51,662 bases of DNA from the IMG/VR virus record IMGVR_UViG_2526164599_000006; one strand, written 5' to 3'. The DNA comes from a virus (lineage: Duplodnaviria; Heunggongvirae; Uroviricota; Caudoviricetes). Positions 4,468 through 49,644 of this stretch are shown here, piece by piece. A program made the translations under genes and the position numbers. Each line of letters starts with the position of its first letter. The stretch's first letter is position 1. The notes under the pieces were generated by a model that was not told the DNA's origin, did not search any database, and was given only the letters and a program-made list of their open reading frames with translations.

Positions 4468-4892
4468 TGTTTTTGGTTTTAACTGTTCCGCGTGCGCTCA
4501 GCCGCATTCACCACATCACAAAATTCACTTTAAAAAGGGCGGCAGAGCAGTCACGGAGTAAAACTGATACCGCCAAACGTCACCAGAAAATTGATAACAG
4601 AGGGCGTTGCAGCGGGGTTGTCACTTAAGCGTATGGTCAACCTGACAACCCGGTGTCCTCAACGGGGGAAGGAATAACCCCGCCATACTTACCGCCGCGC
4701 CATTTCGCGGATTGCCACAACCGGAAGCGCACGGTCGACGAAAATTTAACGACAGGCTATCTATGAACCAGCTACCTCGCCGTGCGCTTTCGCGTTATGG
4801 TCTGACTTTTCAGGGAAATATCCTTTCAGTAAACTTGTCAACGCCAAGATTATTGGCCGTTTTTCGCCATTTTTAATGTCCGCTATTGGTCA

Positions 4893-14895: not shown

Positions 14896-15186
14896 CCTGG
14901 CCTGAAGCATTAACAACGGTAGGAATTGCGATGGCGGTGGCGCTGGTGGTGTATTCGATTTGCCGCTGGGGATAAAAACGGTTTGCGGTAAAGCGAGAGT
15001 TAAGTAGAATTGCTGCGGGTGCTTGAGGCTATCTGCCTCAGGCATGAACACCAAAAGGCAGATAGAGAAAAGCCCCAGTTAACATTACGCGTCCTGCAAG
15101 ACGCTTAACATTAATCTGAGGCCCAATCTATGTCTCACAAATGTAGGTTAGCCTCTTACGTGCCGAAAGGCAAGGAGAAGCAGGCT

Positions 15187-15342
15187 ATGAAGCAGCAAAA
15201 GGCGATGCTAATCGCCCTGATCGTCATCTGTTTAACCGTCATGGTGACGGCACTGGTAACGAGGAAAGACCTCTGCGAGGTACGAATCCGAACCGGCCAG
15301 ACGGAGGTCGCTGTCTTCACAGCTTACGAACCTGAGGAGTAA
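15187..15342 (+). CDS. hokD: Hok/Gef-family small membrane toxin (HokD/RelF-like)
   Basis: 51-aa product MKQQKAMLIALIVICLTVMVTALVTRKDLCEVRIRTGQTEVAVFTAYEPEE; RBS AAGGAG 8 nt upstream; in-frame upstream extension from ATG 15130. Confidence 0.8.
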   Translation: MKQQKAMLIALIVICLTVMVTALVTRKDLCEVRIRTGQTEVAVFTAYEPEE

Positions 15343-19716: not shown

Positions 19717-19792
19717 GGCCCTTTAGCTCAGTGGTGAGAGCGAGCGACTCATAATCGCCAGGTCGCTGGTTCAAATCCAGCAAGGGCCACCA
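19717..19792 (+). tRNA. ileZ: tRNA with CAU anticodon, tRNA-Ile2 (lysidine)-like
   Basis: 76-nt cloverleaf GGCCCTT...AAGGGCCACCA; anticodon loop CTCATAA; close to remembered E. coli ileX. Confidence 0.8.
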
Positions 19793-19892: not shown

Positions 19893-19969
19893 GCGTTGTT
19901 AGCTCAGCCGGACAGAGCAATTGCCTTCTAAGCAATCGGTCACTGGTTCGAATCCAGTACAGCGCGCCA
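19893..19969 (+). tRNA. argO: tRNA-Arg (anticodon UCU)
   Basis: 77-nt cloverleaf GCGTTGT...ACAGCGCGCCA; anticodon loop CTTCTAA; TTCGAATCC T-loop. Confidence 0.8.
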
Positions 19970-20433: not shown

Positions 20434-20889
20434 ATACATATCTGGATTATCACCGGTTACGGTAAAAAGTGATTGCTTACTGTTTTTGTGAATGGCATTG
20501 CAGCAGCCGGATAATGTCAGTGCTGGCTGACGGTGTGCTGGTGGCGGGTGTGGTGGTTGCTGCTTTCCCGTTGCTGAAAAAGAAAACGCCAGACTGTTAG
20601 CCGGGTATCAGTTAGCGGGAGAAATTTTTAAATACTTCACAATTCAGGCGGTTGACTGTTGTCTGGTTTGCGGGGAGTTTGTTAAAAGAAACTGGCATGG
20701 TGAATCCCCCTGTGCGGAGGGGCAATCAGCGAGTAGGTATATGGGATAATCGCGGATTCAGGTGCTGGTACTGAATTCACCGGGAGGCACCCGGCACCAT
20801 GCAATGGCACATAGCGCCACTCTCCAGCCCCTCTCCGGAGGGGCTGTTTATATTGATTTTGTCAGATGTGAGTAAACTCCTTATGGACT

Positions 20890-21216: not shown

Positions 21217-21476
21217 TTAGTTTCCTTGTTTATGCCTTGCTGGTGATGTTCTGAAAAGTATAAATGATATTTTTGATTGTAAACCATAGAGCAGAATTAT
21301 TTTTCTGATGTTGTTTATTGTTTATTTAAATGCAGGGTGGTTTATATCTCGTCTTGTAGTTTATCCATGCATATCTGCTTGATGATGAGGTTTTTAATTA
21401 AGGTATGGTTTTGTGTTTTTTCTGTATTACATGTCAGGTATTTTAAAGAATCATTTTTCAGATGGTGGAAAGAACC

Positions 21477-23330
21477 ATGGCATTTAAACACTATGATGTT
21501 GTCAGGGCGGCGTCGCCGTCAGATCTTGCGGAAAAGCTGACACATAAACTGAAAGAGGGCTGGCAGCCGTTTGGTAGTCCGGTGGCCATAACCCCTTATA
21601 CCCTGATGCAGGCGATTGCAGCAGAAGGTGATGTGGTCGTCAGTGGTGCAACTGAGCCGGAGTGGTACTACGTCATCGTACTGGCCGGGCAGTCCAATGC
21701 CATGGCTTACGGTGAAGGGCTTCCGCTTCCGGATTCATACGATGCGCCCCATCCGCGCATTAAGCAACTGGCCCGTCGTAACACAGTGACTCCCGGTGGT
21801 GAAGTATGCGTATTTAACGACATCATTCCTGCTGACCATTGTCTGCATGATGTTCAGGATATGAGTACGATTAACCATCCCCGGGCTGACCTGAGCAAAG
21901 GGCAGTACGGCTGTGTCGGACAGGGCTTACATATTGCCAAAAAACTGCTTCCGTATATCCCTAATAACGCGGGGATCCTGCTGGTACCATGCTGTCGTGG
22001 TGGTTCGGCATTCACCCAGGGCACGGAGGGGACATTCAGCGAGTCCACGGGGGCCAGTCAGGATTCGGCTCGCTGGGGAGTGGGTAAGCCGTTATATCAG
22101 GATCTGCTTTTCCGCACGAAGGCAGCATTGCAGAAAAACCCGAAAAACGTTTTGCTGGCGATATGCTGGATGCAGGGGGAATTCGATATGACGAATGCCA
22201 GTTACGCCCAGCAGCCAGCAGCATTTCTTGCAATGGTACAGCAGTTCCGTGCTGACCTTGCCGGGCTGGCGGCGCAGTGTCACGGTGGAAGTCCGGCATC
22301 AGTCCCCTGGATTTGTGGCGACACGACATACGCGTGGAAACAAGAACACGGTACGCAATATGAAGTGGTATATGGTGCATATAAAGGTAAAGAATCCCAG
22401 CAGATTTATTTTGTTCCCTTTATGACCGATGGTAGCGGAGTTAATACACCGACAAACAACCCGTCAGAAGATCCTGATATTGTCGGGTCTGGTTATTACG
22501 GTTCGGCATCCCGAACGAACAAAAACTGGGTATCATCAAATCGCCCGACGCATTTCAGCTCATGGGCGCGTCGTGGCATTATTCCCGATCGTATGGCAAC
22601 CGCTATTCTGAACGCAGCCGGGCGCACCTCAGCTTTCATCAGTGGTAAGGCACCGGAAATCAAACCCTCGCCCGGCGGCAACACGCCATCGGGGCCGTCT
22701 GAAGATGCATCCGTACGCACAATCTCCCTGTTGCCGACAGCCGGAGAGGCTGCTGCGCAGGGCTGGACCATTAAGGACGGCGGAATTCAGTTGTCGGGTG
22801 GTGTATTTAAGATCGCCAAGCAGAGCAATAAAACCTGGTCCCTGATGCATCCGGTGGATGACGCAGTCTCCCTGCTGACACGGGGTGGCAGACTGAGCTG
22901 TAAGTTTCGACTGTCAGGCGCACTGACCAACAACCAGTTCGGCCTGGGAATTTATCTGTATACCGATGTAGCGTTACCTGACGTCGTGGCGATGACCGGG
23001 ACTGGTAACCCGTTCCTGATGTCGTTCTTCACCCAGACCACAGACGGCAAACTGAATCTGATGCATCACAAGAAAGCAGGAAACACAAAGTTGGGCGAGT
23101 TCGGGAATTACAGTAATGACTGGCAGACGCTGGAACTGGTGTTCACCGCCGGCAGTGCCACGGTTACTCCGAAACTGAATGGAGTGGCTGGCCCGGCATT
23201 CCAGGTCATAAAAGACAGTCTGACACTGGGGCTGAATGCGCTGACGCTGACGGATATTACCAAAAATGCAGCGTATGGCGTTGAGATAGAAAGTCTGGTG
23301 CTGGAGATAAATGCACCGGCATCATCATAA
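21477..23330 (+). CDS. nanS-p: NanS-p-like sialate O-acetylesterase (DUF1737 N-terminus plus SASA domain)
   Basis: ORF with GQSN motif (VLAGQSNAMAYG) and DUF1737-like N-terminus (MAFKHYDVVRAASP); track start 21462, ATG 21477 preferred. Confidence 0.75.
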   Translation: MAFKHYDVVRAASPSDLAEKLTHKLKEGWQPFGSPVAITPYTLMQAIAAEGDVVVSGATEPEWYYVIVLAGQSNAMAYGEGLPLPDSYDAPHPRIKQLARRNTVTPGGEVCVFNDIIPADHCLHDVQDMSTINHPRADLSKGQYGCVGQGLHIAKKLLPYIPNNAGILLVPCCRGGSAFTQGTEGTFSESTGASQDSARWGVGKPLYQDLLFRTKAALQKNPKNVLLAICWMQGEFDMTNASYAQQPAAFLAMVQQFRADLAGLAAQCHGGSPASVPWICGDTTYAWKQEHGTQYEVVYGAYKGKESQQIYFVPFMTDGSGVNTPTNNPSEDPDIVGSGYYGSASRTNKNWVSSNRPTHFSSWARRGIIPDRMATAILNAAGRTSAFISGKAPEIKPSPGGNTPSGPSEDASVRTISLLPTAGEAAAQGWTIKDGGIQLSGGVFKIAKQSNKTWSLMHPVDDAVSLLTRGGRLSCKFRLSGALTNNQFGLGIYLYTDVALPDVVAMTGTGNPFLMSFFTQTTDGKLNLMHHKKAGNTKLGEFGNYSNDWQTLELVFTAGSATVTPKLNGVAGPAFQVIKDSLTLGLNALTLTDITKNAAYGVEIESLVLEINAPASS

Positions 23331-23480
23331 AAAGTGAGCCAGTCAAATGGAAGGTATCGTTAAACTCACCGGTAGTGTCAGTGGGTCGTCTGAGATGCCT
23401 GCATGAGTTATCAGAGCCATCAGTACTTAACTGGTGGCTTTTTTTATTGTTGTCAGCTTCCGGATAACGGGAGACGGGGT

Positions 23481-23696
23481 ATGTACCAGATGGAAAAAAT
23501 CACAACAGGTGTGTCATACACCACGTCAGCGGTGGGAACGGGCTACTGGTTCCTGCAGTTGCTGGACAGGGTTTCCCCGTCTCAGTGGGCGGCAATAGGC
23601 GTGCTGGGGAGTCTGCTGTTTGGGCTGCTGACATATCTGACTAACCTGTATTTCAAAATCAGAGAGGACCGTCGTAAGGCTGCACGGGGAGAGTAA
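23481..23696 (+). CDS. S: pinholin, phage 21 S-type class II holin
   Basis: 71-aa product with dual start MYQMEK and two TM segments; close to remembered S21 (…[14 protein letters not shown]…[15 protein letters not shown]). Confidence 0.8.
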
Positions 23697-23700
23697 TTCA

Positions 23701-24051
23701 ATGACTCAAAACTATGAACTGATTGTGAAAGGGATCCGCAATTTTGAGAATAAAGTTACGGTAACTTTAGCGTTACGGGACAAAAAACGCTTTGACGGTG
23801 AAATTTTTGACCTGGACATCTCGCTGGACCGTGTTGAAGGTGCCGCGCTGGAGTTTTATGAGGCAGCAGCCAGAAGGAGCATCAGACAGGTCTTCCTGGA
23901 TGTTGCTGCCGGGTTATGTGAAGGGGATGAGCAGTCGCCGGAAAAGCGCCCCGTAATTTTAGAGGCGCAGAATGTGTGGATAACCTACAAAGGAAAGCTA
24001 CCAGGAAGAATTACTGGTTCTCTGAAGACTCCTCCGGAATCACAACCTTAA
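23701..24051 (+). CDS. hypothetical protein between holin and endolysin (YdfR-like position)
   Basis: 116-aa ORF; same position as ydfR between essQ and rrrQ in Qin. Confidence 0.45.
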   Translation: MTQNYELIVKGIRNFENKVTVTLALRDKKRFDGEIFDLDISLDRVEGAALEFYEAAARRSIRQVFLDVAAGLCEGDEQSPEKRPVILEAQNVWITYKGKLPGRITGSLKTPPESQP

Positions 24052-24114
24052 GTCACTGACCGGAACAGATAAACCTGTCCGTGGGCAGAAACCGATAAAT
24101 CCTGATAAATATCC

Positions 24115-24648
24115 ATGAACGCAAAAATCAGATACGGCCTGTCGGCTGCCGTTCTGGCACTGATTGCCGCTGGTGCGCCTGCGCCTGACATTCTCGACCA
24201 GTTTCTGGATGAAAAGGAAGGTAACCACACCACGGCATACCGTGATGGCGCGGGTATCTGGACCATCTGCCGCGGTGCCATCCTGGTGGATGGCAAACCT
24301 GTCGTTCCGGGCATGAAGTTGTCGAAGGAAAAATGCGACCGGGTTAACGCCATTGAGCGTGATAAGGCGCTGGCATGGGTGGAGAAAAACATCAAAGTGC
24401 CATTGAGCGAACCCCAGAAAGCGGGGATCGCGTCATTCTGTCCGTACAACATTGGTCCCGGTAAGTGTTTCCCGTCGACGTTTTACAGACGAATTAATGC
24501 TGGCGATCGCAGGGGAGCATGTGAGGCGATTCGCTGGTGGATTAAGGACGGTGGCAGAGACTGCCGTATTCGTTCAAATAACTGCTATGGACAGGTCTCA
24601 CGGCGTGACCAGGAGAGCGCGCTGGCGTGCTGGGGTATCGACAGATAA
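24115..24648 (+). CDS. R: SAR endolysin (lysozyme)
   Basis: 177-aa ORF with N-terminal signal-anchor-release segment (LSAAVLALIAAGA) and lysozyme catalytic region. Confidence 0.85.
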   Translation: MNAKIRYGLSAAVLALIAAGAPAPDILDQFLDEKEGNHTTAYRDGAGIWTICRGAILVDGKPVVPGMKLSKEKCDRVNAIERDKALAWVEKNIKVPLSEPQKAGIASFCPYNIGPGKCFPSTFYRRINAGDRRGACEAIRWWIKDGGRDCRIRSNNCYGQVSRRDQESALACWGIDR

Positions 24649-24806
24649 GCAGAATATTTTGCTGAAAATAAGGCATGGCCACGCGGGCGGATAACATGAA
24701 ATCCTGCGAAGTGGCGAAACGTAAGTGAATAAAAGTAAAAACCCCGTTTGTTGGCACCAAGCGGGGTTTTGTGTTTCCTGACTCCGGAAAAGTCAAAGGA
24801 GAAAGT

Positions 24807-24944
24807 GTGTTTGATTTTAGCAAACTGATTCGGGAGATTCGAGTGGTGGCTGAAAAATTATCCACCTGGAAGTTCATTCTTATCTGGCTGGTGTTTGTGA
24901 TTATGGCCTCCGGTTATTTCATCGGTCAGATACGCTGGTGGTGA
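24807..24944 (+). CDS. candidate small membrane protein
   Basis: 45-codon ORF from GTG with RBS AAGGAG 5 nt upstream; one TM segment (FILIWLVFVIMASGYFIG); ends 1 nt before Rz ATG. Confidence 0.25.
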   Translation: MFDFSKLIREIRVVAEKLSTWKFILIWLVFVIMASGYFIGQIRWW

Positions 24945-24945
24945 A

Positions 24946-25413
24946 ATGAACCGCGTACTGTGCGTGGTCATCATTGCCCTGCTGGTGGCCTGTGGTGCGC
25001 TTAGTCTGGGGCTGAATCATTACCGTGATAACGCCATAACCTACAAAGAGCAGCGCGATAAAAAAGTCAGTGAGCTGGAGCAGGCAAATGCAACCATTAC
25101 TGATATGCAGCAGCGCCAGCGTGATGTTGCTGCACTTGATGCCAGATACTCGAGGGAATTAGCCGATGCGAGAGCTGAAAATGAAACTCTGCGCGCTGAC
25201 GTTGCCGCTGGTCGTAAGCGCCTGCGGATCAACGCCACCTGCCCCGGTACCGTGCGTGAAGCCCCCACCACCTCCGGCGTGGATAATGCAACCGGCCCCC
25301 GACTGGCAGACACCGCTGAACGGGATTATTTCACTCTCAGAGAGCGGTTGATGCTGATGCAGAAGCAGCTGGAAGTGGCGCAGGAATATATCCGCACTCA
25401 GTGCCTGAAATAA
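24946..25413 (+). CDS. Rz: i-spanin Rz
   Basis: 155-aa ORF with N-terminal TM anchor and coiled-coil periplasmic domain. Confidence 0.8.
   Translation: MNRVLCVVIIALLVACGALSLGLNHYRDNAITYKEQRDKKVSELEQANATITDMQQRQRDVAALDARYSRELADARAENETLRADVAAGRKRLRINATCPGTVREAPTTSGVDNATGPRLADTAERDYFTLRERLMLMQKQLEVAQEYIRTQCLK
25181..25351 (+). CDS. Rz1: o-spanin Rz1 (lipoprotein), embedded in Rz in the +1 frame
   Basis: Product MKLCALTLPLVVSACGS... with lipobox VSAC and proline-rich mature region. Confidence 0.7.
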   Translation: MKLCALTLPLVVSACGSTPPAPVPCVKPPPPPAWIMQPAPDWQTPLNGIISLSESG

Positions 25414-25629
25414 GTTTTGCTGATGCGCGGTATTGTCGCCGTATCCCCGCATTAACAGAGACCGCAGCCCGACCGGGAGACTCCTCTGCGCGAGTGTGCG
25501 GGGATAATCAAAAACGATACACACCGGGGTTTACCGCGTTAACGGAGCGCGGCGTTGTCCCCTCATAGTCGCCTGTCCGGTGCGATGGTGGAAGAAACCG
25601 GACTACATTGAAAATGATAACCATTATCA

Positions 25630-25850
25630 TTTTTGCGGGTCCTTTCCGGCGATCCGGGCCGTTACGGGGCGGCGACCTCGCGGTTTTTCACTATTTATGA
25701 AAATTTTTCAGGGAAAATCGTGTCGGTACTTCTCGAATATAACTTTTTGTTTTTTTAATATTGCATTCATAAATGTCCGACATGAAAGTGTCCGAAAATG
25801 CCTTTTTCTGGCGTTTTCATGTCGGGCCTTGTATTTGATAATGGGTTGTT
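25630..25850 (+). other. cos site (cosN at 25667..25678 with cosB-like repeats downstream)
   Basis: GGGCGGCGACCTCGCGG...CTATTTATGAAAATTTT matches remembered lambda cos; repeated GTCCGA(C/A)A(T/A)G-like elements at about 25770..25830 before Nu1. Confidence 0.7.
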
Positions 25851-25852
25851 CT

Positions 25853-26401
25853 ATGAAGGTTAATAAAAAGAGGCTTGCCGAAATTTTTAACGTGGACCCG
25901 CGGACGATTGAACGCTGGCAGTCTCAGGGGCTCCCTTGCGTCTCCAAAGGCAGTAAGGGCATTGAATCTGTATTTGATACTGCCATGGCAATTCAGTGGT
26001 ATGCGCAGAGGGAAACTGATATCGAAAACGAAAAGCTCCGCAAAGAACTGGCCGATTTGCGTGCGGCAGCGGAGTCAGATTTACAACCCGGCACCATTGA
26101 CTATGAACGCTACCGGCTCACAAAAGCGCAGGCAGATGCGCAGGAACTGAAAAATGCCCGTGAAGACGGAGTGGTGCTGGAAACTGAACTGTTTACCTTC
26201 ATTCTGCAACGTGTGGCACAGGAGATTTCGGGGATACTTGTGCGTGTGCCGTTGACATTACAGCGTAAATATCCGGACATTTCACCATCACACCTTGATG
26301 TGGTGAAAACTGAAATCGCGAAAGCCTCCAATGTTGCAGCTAAGGCCGGTGAAAACGTGGGCGGGTGGATCGATGATTTCAGACGCACAGAAGGCAGCTA
26401 A
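25853..26401 (+). CDS. nu1: terminase small subunit (Nu1)
   Basis: Product [28 protein letters not shown]... colinear with lambda Nu1. Confidence 0.85.
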
Positions 26402-49060: not shown

Positions 49061-49644
49061 TGGCATTCAGAATGAGTGAACAAGCACGGACCATAAAAAT
49101 TTATAATCTGCTGGCCGGAACTAATGAATTTATTGGTGAAGGTGACGCATATATTCCGCCTCATACAGGTCTGCCAGCAAACAGTACCGATATTGCACCA
49201 CCAGATATTCCTGCTGGCTTTGTGGCTGTTTTCAACAGTGATGAGGCATCGTGGCATCTCGTTGAAGACCATCGGGGAAAAACGGTTTATGACGTAGCGT
49301 CAGGGGACGAGTTATTTATTTCTGAACTCGGTCCGTTACCGGAAAATGTTACCTGGTTATCGCCGGAAGGGGAGTTTCAGAAGTGGAACGGCACAGCCTG
49401 GGTGAAGGATACGGAAGCAGAAAAAATGTTCCGGATCCGGGAGGCGGAAGAAACAAAAAACAACCTGATGCAGGTAGCCAGTGAGCATATTGCGCCGCTT
49501 CAGGATGCTGCAGATCTGGAAATTGCAACGGAGGAAGAAACCTCATTGCTGGAAGCCTGGAAAAAGTATCGGGTGTTGCTGAACCGTGTTGATACATCAA
49601 CTGCACCTGATATTGAGTGGCCTACGAACCCTGTCAGGGAGTAA
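49060..49644 (+). CDS. tfa: tail fibre assembly protein Tfa
   Basis: 194-aa ORF overlapping stf stop; Tfa-like N- and C-termini. Confidence 0.85.

Follow-up and report, generated by a model that had tools for sequence, protein, structure and literature searches.

Accessory genes at the junctions of a phage-21-type lysis cassette: ydfR and a hairpin-led small membrane-peptide gene in an Escherichia coli lambdoid prophage

The DNA analysed here, IMG/VR virus record IMGVR_UViG_2526164599_000006 (Duplodnaviria; Heunggongvirae; Uroviricota; Caudoviricetes), is a single stretch of 51,662 nt, referred to below as the window. Positions 23481-25413 hold a phage-21-type lysis cassette, composed of an S21 pinholin, a GH24 endolysin and the spanin pair Rz/Rz1 together with two accessory inserts, and this cassette is part of the late, Q-dependent operon of a lambdoid prophage of E. 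coli. The inserts are ydfR, between holin and endolysin, and a hairpin followed by a 45-codon open reading frame (ORF), between endolysin and Rz. An earlier note on this DNA, written from the letters alone, had singled out both ORFs and the hairpin and had suggested that they might modulate lysis timing or be small morons; its coordinates for all three, compared with the sequence and the ORF list, are correct. The features of the region, all on the plus strand, are as follows.

23481..23696, plus strand: S21-type class II holin (pinholin), 71 aa (PF04971, E 9e-33; phrog_9876/phrog_20 'holin')
23701..24051, plus strand: ydfR, DUF1327, 116 aa, ATG start (PF07041, 145.1 bits; phrog_406)
24115..24648, plus strand: GH24 endolysin with a signal-anchor-release (SAR)-like N-terminus (PF00959, E 6e-24)
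24649..24726, plus strand: conserved non-coding flank 3' of the endolysin gene (relatives match from 24640 for 94-103 nt)
24727..24737, plus strand: A-rich element GAATAAAAGTA, the 5' edge of the small-gene cassette (near-invariant A columns in alignment A2)
24738..24770, plus strand, with a U-rich tail to 24779: hairpin 1, an intrinsic-terminator-like stem-loop (terminator scan, covariation)
24774..24802, plus strand: hairpin 2, predicted pairing of the U-tail with the Shine-Dalgarno (SD) sequence (minimum free energy, MFE, -7.6 kcal/mol)
24807..24944, plus strand: 45-codon gene, GTG start, phrog_6632 (hidden Markov model match, pN/pS)
24946..25413, plus strand: Rz i-spanin (PF03245, E 8e-49)
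25166..25351, plus strand: Rz1 o-spanin lipoprotein, embedded in Rz (PF06085, E 8e-21)

The 45-codon gene and its leader

The small ORF opens with GTG at 24807, 4 nt beyond the SD sequence AGGAGA (24797-24802), and its TGA stop ends at 24944, with the Rz ATG following at 24946 (junction TGAaATG). A Kyte-Doolittle maximum of 2.13 over residues 24-42 predicts one transmembrane (TM) segment, and the description of a single-TM ORF with a GTG start that ends 1 nt before Rz is therefore accurate. Judged against chance, neither a 45-codon ORF nor a single terminator-like hairpin is remarkable alone; both are taken to be real because they are conserved, the ORF in its substitution pattern and the hairpin in its compensatory changes.

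Searches with tblastn recovered 49 phage records that carry the ORF, among them Shiga toxin (Stx) phages of the Stx1a, Stx2a and Stx2c types and H-19B, with identities of 58-64% in Salmonella phages and 48% in a Pseudomonas phage. The initial search for relatives gave near-identical E. coli copies only; the diversity came from a scan of genome collections and a scan with a degenerate DNA pattern, through which 62 distinct loci were collected. The start codon in these is GTG (54 loci) or TTG (8) and never ATG, and the ORF is 45 aa long in 51 of the 62. The pairwise ratio of nonsynonymous to synonymous change (pN/pS) is 0.33 in the ORF frame versus 0.77 and 1.84 in the other frames, a pattern that also holds for codons 12-45, which the search pattern left unconstrained. 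The predicted peptide matches phrog_6632 from residue 13 to 57 of a 57-aa frame, that is, over the 45-aa form, and across profile positions 1-45 of 45 (E 2e-28); this is its sole PHROG match at E <=0.1, and the family belongs to the category function unknown. The longer 57-aa form, from GTG 24771, was set aside: it lacks an SD sequence, starts inside the U-tail, and precedes a PHROG match that begins only at residue 13.

By its substitution pattern, the 45-codon ORF is a genuine gene under purifying selection, which bears out the conservation in related phages that the earlier note had set beforehand as a test. It is extremely improbable that the frame arose by chance and that the RNA elements alone matter. 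The annotation pipeline PGAP does leave the ORF unannotated in a 99.4% identical locus, and many chance ORFs of similar size occur in the region; however, the near-constant length and the frame-specific pN/pS, including that of codons 12-45, already contradict chance, the protein is conserved to 48% identity in the Pseudomonas phage with synonymous changes, and a dedicated PHROG family exists.

An exhaustive profile search of 1.84 billion representatives returned only 37 clusters. Distant members keep the N-terminal motif SK(L/I)IRE(L/I)RxMxEKLPxW(K/R)F, and their TM segment varies. This combination suggests a small inner-membrane peptide with a C-terminal anchor, in which the cytoplasmic helix is predicted to be the selected part. 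The family is catalogued as a PHROG and uncharacterised. It is annotated in a few records (CAH23245.1 of CP-1639 and some 'phage protein' entries); RefSeq PGAP omits it in the 99.4% identical locus mentioned above (L006, E. coli 300709, 2669-2806), where the locus tags jump from RS07600 to RS07610. Neither YdfR nor the small ORFs matched PADLOC or NCBIfam at E <=0.1, and nothing was found for the small ORFs in Pfam. A full-text literature search with the peptide sequence yielded no paper, and none was found on the leader either; a survey of Stx-phage lysis cassettes (PMC8136144) discusses neither accessory gene. A minus-strand ORF of 111 aa (24542-24877), which spans the hairpin and the 3' end of the endolysin gene, is 'hypothetical' in CP-1639 and unannotated by PGAP.

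The segment upstream of the gene contains two predicted RNA structures. Hairpin 1 has 13 pairs (6 G-C) and a 7-nt loop, followed by TTTTGTGTTTCCT / UUUUGUGUUUCCU, and dominates the MFE fold of 24649-24810 as a helix of 13 bp (-47.3 kcal/mol for the whole region, z -2.5). With its G+C-rich stem, short loop and 3' U-tract it has the form of an intrinsic terminator, termination itself being predicted; a terminator scan found five terminator-like sites versus 2.9 +/- 1.9 in shuffled sequence. Across 28 diverse leaders (alignment A2), 96.7% of the cells in the stem are paired, and compensatory double changes occur at 8 of the 12 pairs. Covariation reaches 0.321, compared with 0.121 +/- 0.016 in shuffles (0/500 reach the observed value) and a maximum of 0.094 in slid controls. 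The latter comparison and the number of pair types carry more weight than the shuffles. Within the stem, 21 cells are G.U and one is A.C, an asymmetry indicating that the stem is selected as sense-strand RNA and not as an antisense terminator or a DNA cruciform.

Hairpin 2 is formed by pairing of UUUCCU (24774-24779), part of the U-tail, with the SD sequence itself, around an inner stem GACU/AGUC. Other family members use other inner stems (CCUUG/CAAGG, CCUG/CAGG, CAUG/CAUG, GUUA/UAAC, AUGGC/GCUAU). This hairpin was assessed by folding each sequence separately, and column covariation was dropped, since the register of the inner stem differs between lineages. Predicted pairing of the SD sequence has a median probability of 0.93 in the family (28 of 31 leaders exceed 0.5) versus 0.67 in 26 control genes elsewhere in the window (Mann-Whitney p 0.0012, for samples that are not independent). 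The 'good' ribosome-binding site that had been ascribed to the ORF is thus good as a sequence, although folding predicts that it is base-paired.

Both hairpins and a GTG or TTG start are present in all the family members found, which amount to 62 distinct loci with 48 distinct leaders, and in all contexts the order is the same: A-rich element, G+C-rich hairpin, U-rich tail, second hairpin, SD sequence, non-ATG start. Portions of the hairpin and leader are homologous across genomic contexts, as in the shared block AACAGTCGGGGTTTTCTGTTTCT. A consensus scan of the plus strand from 24649 to 24806 found no sigma-70-like promoter, although weak or non-sigma-70 promoters could escape it. In Rfam, a gathering-level scan of the whole window gave nothing within 23481-24944, and a permissive scan of 23000-26000 gave just a sub-threshold minus-strand rimP-leader (24.7 bits against a gathering cutoff of 47, E 0.51), which was treated as a chance match. 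Hairpin 1 forms the 5' portion of the leader that belongs to the small ORF, and the two travel together. The hairpin that had been described as following the endolysin gene does so, at 24738-24770, but it is not simply the terminator of that gene.

A small hydrophobic peptide with a non-ATG start and a predicted occluded SD sequence also invites comparison with type I toxin-antitoxin systems, in which case a membrane toxin would be silenced by its mRNA structure and by an antisense RNA ending at the bidirectional-looking hairpin. The A-tract on one side of hairpin 1 and the U-tract on the other could terminate transcription both ways, and one weak minus-strand promoter-like site lies inside the ORF (24929-24900). 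However, this site scores 9/12, which is at chance level (2 found versus 2.5 expected), and its -10 element is not conserved in SPN3UB; the wobble asymmetry points to selection on the sense strand; and the cassette lies in late operons and is often translationally coupled to the gene that follows, whereas type I loci stand alone. We regard such a system as very unlikely here.

Genomic contexts of the hairpin-ORF cassette

The unit of hairpin, leader and ORF measures about 220-240 bp (here about 24727-24944). Where it occurs in a lysis cassette, it always lies between the gene for a muralytic enzyme and a spanin (Rz or i-spanin-like) gene. The enzyme upstream may be a Phage_lysozyme (GH24; this window, SPN3UB and a P22-like Salmonella prophage), GH19, Peptidase_M15_4 or CHAP protein, or an unclassified 138-aa protein in the endolysin position, so that at least four unrelated endolysin families are represented; the holins that accompany it are of S21 or HP1 type. 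The cassette is also found away from lysis genes. In SEN34 and in Pantoea stewartii and Yersinia prophages it separates the central-spike gene (Gp138-N/gpV-Apex) from the baseplate gene that comes next; a tail-fibre gene precedes it in a Sodalis prophage, and minor-tail genes do so in Pseudomonas phage YMC11/02/R656. In this last phage (locus L011, 2671-2787) the family member is succeeded by a second single-TM ORF of 38 aa (phrog_12997), a tandem arrangement that mirrors the small membrane ORFs in the endolysin-Rz (R-Rz) gaps of E. coli phages.

Occupied and empty sites were compared in IMG/VR, among the 80 relatives closest to the SEN34 baseplate gene. Sixty-six lack the cassette, the flanking genes overlapping in 55 (TAATG) and being 2 nt apart in 11; nine carry a cassette of 239-240 nt, and one carries a 5'-deleted remnant without the hairpin and the first codons. 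A 135-nt decayed cassette, from which the hairpin and the first ~8 codons are deleted, lies upstream of the baseplate gene at 1501 in locus L233. In SEN34 the hairpin lies just ~20 nt past the stop codon before it. At the endolysin-spanin junction, rrrQ and rzpQ of the K-12 Qin prophage overlap by 4 nt with nothing between them, and the corresponding gap of 297 nt in the window consists of the conserved flank and the hairpin-ORF cassette. Its presence between genes that otherwise abut or overlap marks the cassette as an insertion and makes it a moron in the operational sense. Hairpin, leader and ORF are inherited and have moved as one unit. Of 5,426 complete E. coli genomes, 871 contain at least 80% of window positions 24640-24950, which take in the 3' flank of the endolysin gene, both hairpins and the ORF.

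The R-Rz gap of E. coli phages is itself mosaic. The flank at 24649-24726 stays with the endolysin gene in these mosaics: the first 94-103 nt past the endolysin stop are common even to 933W, where homology ends at the foot of the hairpin and ant follows. Conservation of ~80-100 nt after the endolysin stop extends across E. coli and Salmonella phages, including the hairpin-less 933W; the flank contains no conserved ORF and has no Rfam match. Other prophages keep the hairpin and leader but continue into different small single-TM ORFs, of the phrog_4493/1115/3246 types (ending ...AIRWW or ...VIALKS) or of the phrog_4906 type (MSDKLIT...). Both 933W (locus L005, 3350-3502) and Sakai Sp15 (locus L222, 29749-29895, minus strand) have a phrog_4906-type single-TM ORF of 43-48 aa (ECs_5741) between ant and Rz, so that the gap in 933W holds ant and a different small ORF. 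These alternative ORFs suggest that the R-Rz gap is a hot spot for small membrane-peptide genes, and the presence of such genes just upstream of Rz is a general feature of these phages. In SPN3UB (locus L003, about 1900-2010), an unannotated hydrophobic ORF of 36 aa, MSKRDVSALCFLMAAAVAISGNDGWGWLIFAGIIIL, with a weak phrog_14810 match, comes immediately after the lysozyme gene and precedes both the conserved flank and the cassette.

The mosaics raise the question of whether hairpin 1 is independent of the ORF, serving instead as an endolysin terminator or insulator, or as the 3' end of a small RNA (sRNA) derived from the 3' untranslated region. E. coli mosaics do retain hairpin and leader while the ORF differs, with matches ending at +137 to +164; the ~90 nt between the endolysin stop and the hairpin are conserved; and the succession of A-rich tract, hairpin and U-tail resembles the 3' end of an Hfq-binding sRNA. 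We nonetheless find this improbable. The hairpin accompanies the ORF outside lysis cassettes, ~20 nt past an unrelated stop codon and without the 90-nt flank; its sequences are homologous across those contexts (AACAGTCGGGGTTTTCTGTTTCT); its U-tail is also the anti-SD strand of hairpin 2; and no Rfam family matches. In the part of Tree et al. (2014) available to us, the peaks of Hfq cross-linking and analysis of cDNA (CRAC) listed for Sakai Sp15 (EcOnc22 and EcOnc47; Table S2) include none in the R-Rz gap, although Sp15 has the 933W-type gap without hairpin 1. The same part of that source places AgvB and AsxR 3' of stx (Tree et al., 2014).

Expression, function and competing explanations

The explanation we favour, and which as a whole seems to us reasonably probable, is that this lysis cassette has received, at gene junctions, two accessory modules that are independent of each other. 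The first would be ydfR, encoding a soluble protein; the second would be the hairpin-ORF cassette, an accessory, moron-like membrane-peptide insert that also occurs outside lysis cassettes, with throttled expression and a membrane role of the moron type.

In this explanation, the cassette would be promoterless and transcribed solely by read-through from the late operon. In this lambdoid phage, the Q-modified, terminator-resistant polymerase would pass hairpin 1, and unmodified polymerase would mostly stop there. Low output may thus be imposed in three layers: attenuation at hairpin 1, occlusion of the SD sequence by hairpin 2, and the non-ATG start. The occluded SD sequence and the use of GTG or TTG, never ATG, would be consistent with selection for low translation. 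Ribosomes that finish the ORF could reinitiate at Rz, 1 nt downstream, as the junction of stop, one nucleotide and ATG permits. The peptide itself may use its N-terminal helix to act at the inner membrane, its target not being specific to lysis. Our guess is that its most plausible role is of the moron type, for example superinfection exclusion or membrane modulation.

It is also possible, if doubtful, that one or both accessory genes are lysis regulators: YdfR, the 45-aa peptide or both would then tune the timing or efficiency of pinholin, SAR endolysin or spanin, with the peptide acting as an antiholin-like or releasin-like membrane partner, or the ORF as a translational leader that sets Rz dosage. 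Both genes lie within the lysis cassette, and the small ORF recurs at the endolysin-spanin junction behind its several unrelated endolysin families, usually with its stop 1 nt from the Rz ATG. A junction of stop, one nucleotide and ATGA is present in 35 of the 62 loci (TGAAATGA in 26, TGACATGA in 6, TGATATGA in 2 and TAACATGA in 1), and the only SD-like element of Rz, GGUGGUGA, is made by the last codons of the small ORF. The phrog_4493/1115/3246 and phrog_4906 ORFs take this place in other phages of E. coli, 933W and Sakai Sp15 among them. However, the identical cassette, hairpin included, lies between spike and baseplate genes and after tail genes elsewhere; its association with both S21-type and HP1-type holins and with non-SAR enzymes shows that it is not tied to a pinholin/SAR mechanism; phrog_6632, the sole PHROG match, is not a family of the 'lysis' category; and many functional cassettes lack both genes. 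A general membrane role of the moron type was ranked above lysis timing because the cassette is found outside lysis cassettes and does not depend on holin or endolysin type. The lysis-timing role that had been suggested finds no support here, since nothing ties either gene to timing and the hairpin-ORF unit also lives outside lysis cassettes.

Several considerations nonetheless weigh against the explanation of a throttled, moron-type insert. Termination, read-through, SD occlusion and coupling to Rz are predictions. A real terminator in an essential, translationally coupled baseplate operon of the SEN34 type would be polar; SEN34 is a deposited complete genome with hairpin 1 within such an operon, which implies that the hairpin is leaky there or has another RNA function (stability, processing). 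At least five cassette types have the unit at the endolysin-spanin junction, which is compatible with a lysis-related role, and three other families of small single-TM ORFs fill the same gap. The pattern search demanded the N-terminal motif, so that the sample is biased, and kinship among family members means that the shuffle statistics and the Mann-Whitney test overstate independence.

A bolder proposal, which we advance tentatively, is that the cassette represents an undescribed, self-contained mobile expression module: the U-tail of the terminator would double as anti-SD, weak translation would occur from read-through transcripts only, and a membrane-anchored effector helix would be produced beside genes that attack the envelope, such as those for endolysins and tail spikes. 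If so, the peptide would represent a new class of membrane effector in phages, which might for example protect the producing or lysogenic cell from these enzymes, exclude a superinfecting phage or dose the spanin.

The finding is mostly ordinary mosaic accessory content, with one testable result of moderate interest, the small mobile attenuator/anti-SD/GTG cassette with a conserved membrane peptide. The cassette is common yet poorly annotated, and its ORF is found in many Stx1a, Stx2a and Stx2c phages. The lysis operon governs host lysis and, in Stx phages, the release of Shiga toxin. Given the position of the cassette immediately upstream of Rz in this operon, coupling to spanin dosage or an effect on the membrane would be medically relevant. 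On a wider view, what is taken for a 'terminator inside a lysis cassette' can prove to be a tiny mobile gene's leader, and endolysin-spanin and spike-baseplate junctions appear to be recurrent landing sites for small membrane-peptide genes. The combination of attenuator, anti-SD and non-ATG start also offers a defined, testable RNA design.

ydfR, the lysis backbone and relation to known systems

The 116-aa ORF that had been noted as separating pinholin from SAR endolysin does so, and is ydfR: its start lies 4 nt past the holin stop, and its match to PF07041 (145.1 bits against a cutoff of 25, residues 1-112) identifies the predicted product as a member of the YdfR/DUF1327 family, an already-known family of unknown function. 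The order holin-ydfR-endolysin also occurs in K-12 Qin (essQ-ydfR-rrrQ) and in many E. coli prophages and phages. In 933W and SPN3UB, which lack ydfR, holin and endolysin genes are directly adjacent (4 nt apart in 933W), suggesting that ydfR is an optional insert at the holin-endolysin (S-R) junction. All 320 database homologues with a named source come from Escherichia or Shigella, except one partial record labelled Enterococcus faecalis. An AlphaFold2 (AF2) model built from 21 sequences has a moderate predicted local distance difference test (pLDDT) score of 64, with values of 70-88 in an N-terminal domain of three strands plus a helix, and 40 C-terminal residues that are unreliable. A Foldseek search of this model against the PDB gave nothing below E 0.1; fold matches to a PUR repeat and to a partner of a double-stranded RNA-binding domain (dsRBD) were weak (probability <=0.2) and were not used.

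The sole functional or experimental lead we located for YdfR comes from a recent study of the Qin protein, which binds the N-terminal catalytic half of RNase E (by two-hybrid and co-purification), pulls down DNase-resistant nucleic acid and may carry RNA, and on overexpression altered few transcripts (PMC13232886, 2026). It is a reasonable guess that YdfR serves as a late-expressed RNase E partner, and the location of its gene within the late lysis operon sets that report in a phage context.

The remaining parts of the cassette conform to the phage-21 type. The holin scores 112 bits against PF04971 (cutoff 26), and its N-terminus, MYQMEK, offers Met1 and Met4 as the dual start of a class II holin of the P21 S family; folding places its SD sequence within a predicted stem. 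The endolysin has a weakly hydrophobic, Gly/Ala-rich N-terminus and shows YGLSAAVLALIAAGAPA followed by E35, D44 and T50 in the E-8-D-5-T spacing of the catalytic triad. These features mark it as a GH24 enzyme with an N-terminal SAR domain and a catalytic triad, for which release from the membrane is predicted; its relatives in the PDB include 3HDE/3HDF (phage 21 lysozyme) and 4ZPU (RrrD). No recognisable SD motif was found upstream of the endolysin start, which lies 63 nt past the end of ydfR (gap 24052-24114). The K-12 Qin genes ydfR and rrrQ share 4 nt (ATGA); the endolysin gene of 933W begins 4 nt past the holin stop, and the holin gene has a purine-rich end just upstream. The spanin is of the two-component kind, with the o-spanin gene embedded in that of the i-spanin.

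Upstream of the holin, the gap 23331-23480 that follows a sialate-esterase-like gene (21462-23330) contains another terminator-like hairpin with a T-run (23413-23441) and has no Rfam match. A preprint places the Hfq-dependent sRNAs PasA and PasC at the esterase-holin position and relates STnc100 to PasD; its main text does not allow sequence identity with the 23413-23441 hairpin to be verified (10.64898/2026.05.13.724894). Gathering-level Rfam matches in the window are STnc100 (20666-20855), sok antitoxin (15017-15192), DicF (4537-4588, minus strand), IS009 (49403-49601), tRNA-Met (19717-19792) and tRNA-Arg (19893-19969). The interval from the tRNAs to the esterase gene is too short to hold stx, so that this looks like an stx-negative lambdoid prophage of the enteropathogenic/enterohaemorrhagic E. 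coli (EPEC/EHEC) type.

Set beside known systems, the backbone resembles phage 21 and K-12 Qin in its PF04971 dual-start holin, its endolysin of the GH24 family and its embedded Rz1, and Qin shares ydfR at the S-R junction. It differs from Qin, in which rrrQ and rzpQ overlap by 4 nt, in the 297-nt endolysin-Rz gap, and also in YdfR, which has 103 aa in Qin and 116 aa here, with different C-termini.

The small peptide, hydrophobic and under 50 aa, with an mRNA predicted to be structured so as to limit translation, resembles type I toxins such as Hok, TisB and Ibs. Unlike these, it has no evident antisense or adjacent sRNA gene, the only minus-strand promoter-like site being unconserved and at chance level; its structure is on the sense strand, and it is coupled within a late operon. 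As a small single-TM protein encoded beside a SAR-type endolysin, it also recalls antiholins and gp25 of phage Mu, the 'releasin', a small membrane lysis regulator (PMC9239132). It departs from them in matching phrog_6632 only (E <=0.1) and in occurring with non-SAR enzymes and outside lysis cassettes. The leader resembles fourU-type RNA thermometers and other SD-occluding leaders, in which a short U-rich stretch pairs with AGGAG at about -7 to -9 kcal/mol just upstream of the start; the likeness is one of predicted fold, and the U-stretch here, which has no Rfam match, is also the tail of a terminator-like hairpin.

The nearest comparison is with morons. The classic moron of Juhala/Hendrix has its own promoter upstream and its own terminator downstream. 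Of the three features, extra DNA is present here, and the other two are missing: no promoter was detected in the scan described above, the terminator-like hairpin lies upstream, and the stop abuts the next gene. The suggestion of 'small morons' is therefore apt in the loose sense of optional accessory genes in otherwise homologous cassettes (933W and SPN3UB do without ydfR), but not in the strict one. HK97 gp15 is a small inner-membrane superinfection-exclusion protein encoded among tail genes; the likeness to it rests on general knowledge and not on sequence similarity, and exclusion by the cassette peptide is hypothetical. What the cassette shares with the lambdoid morons is extra DNA between adjacent or overlapping genes, a place in a late operon, a small membrane protein as product and a distribution over unrelated phage backgrounds.

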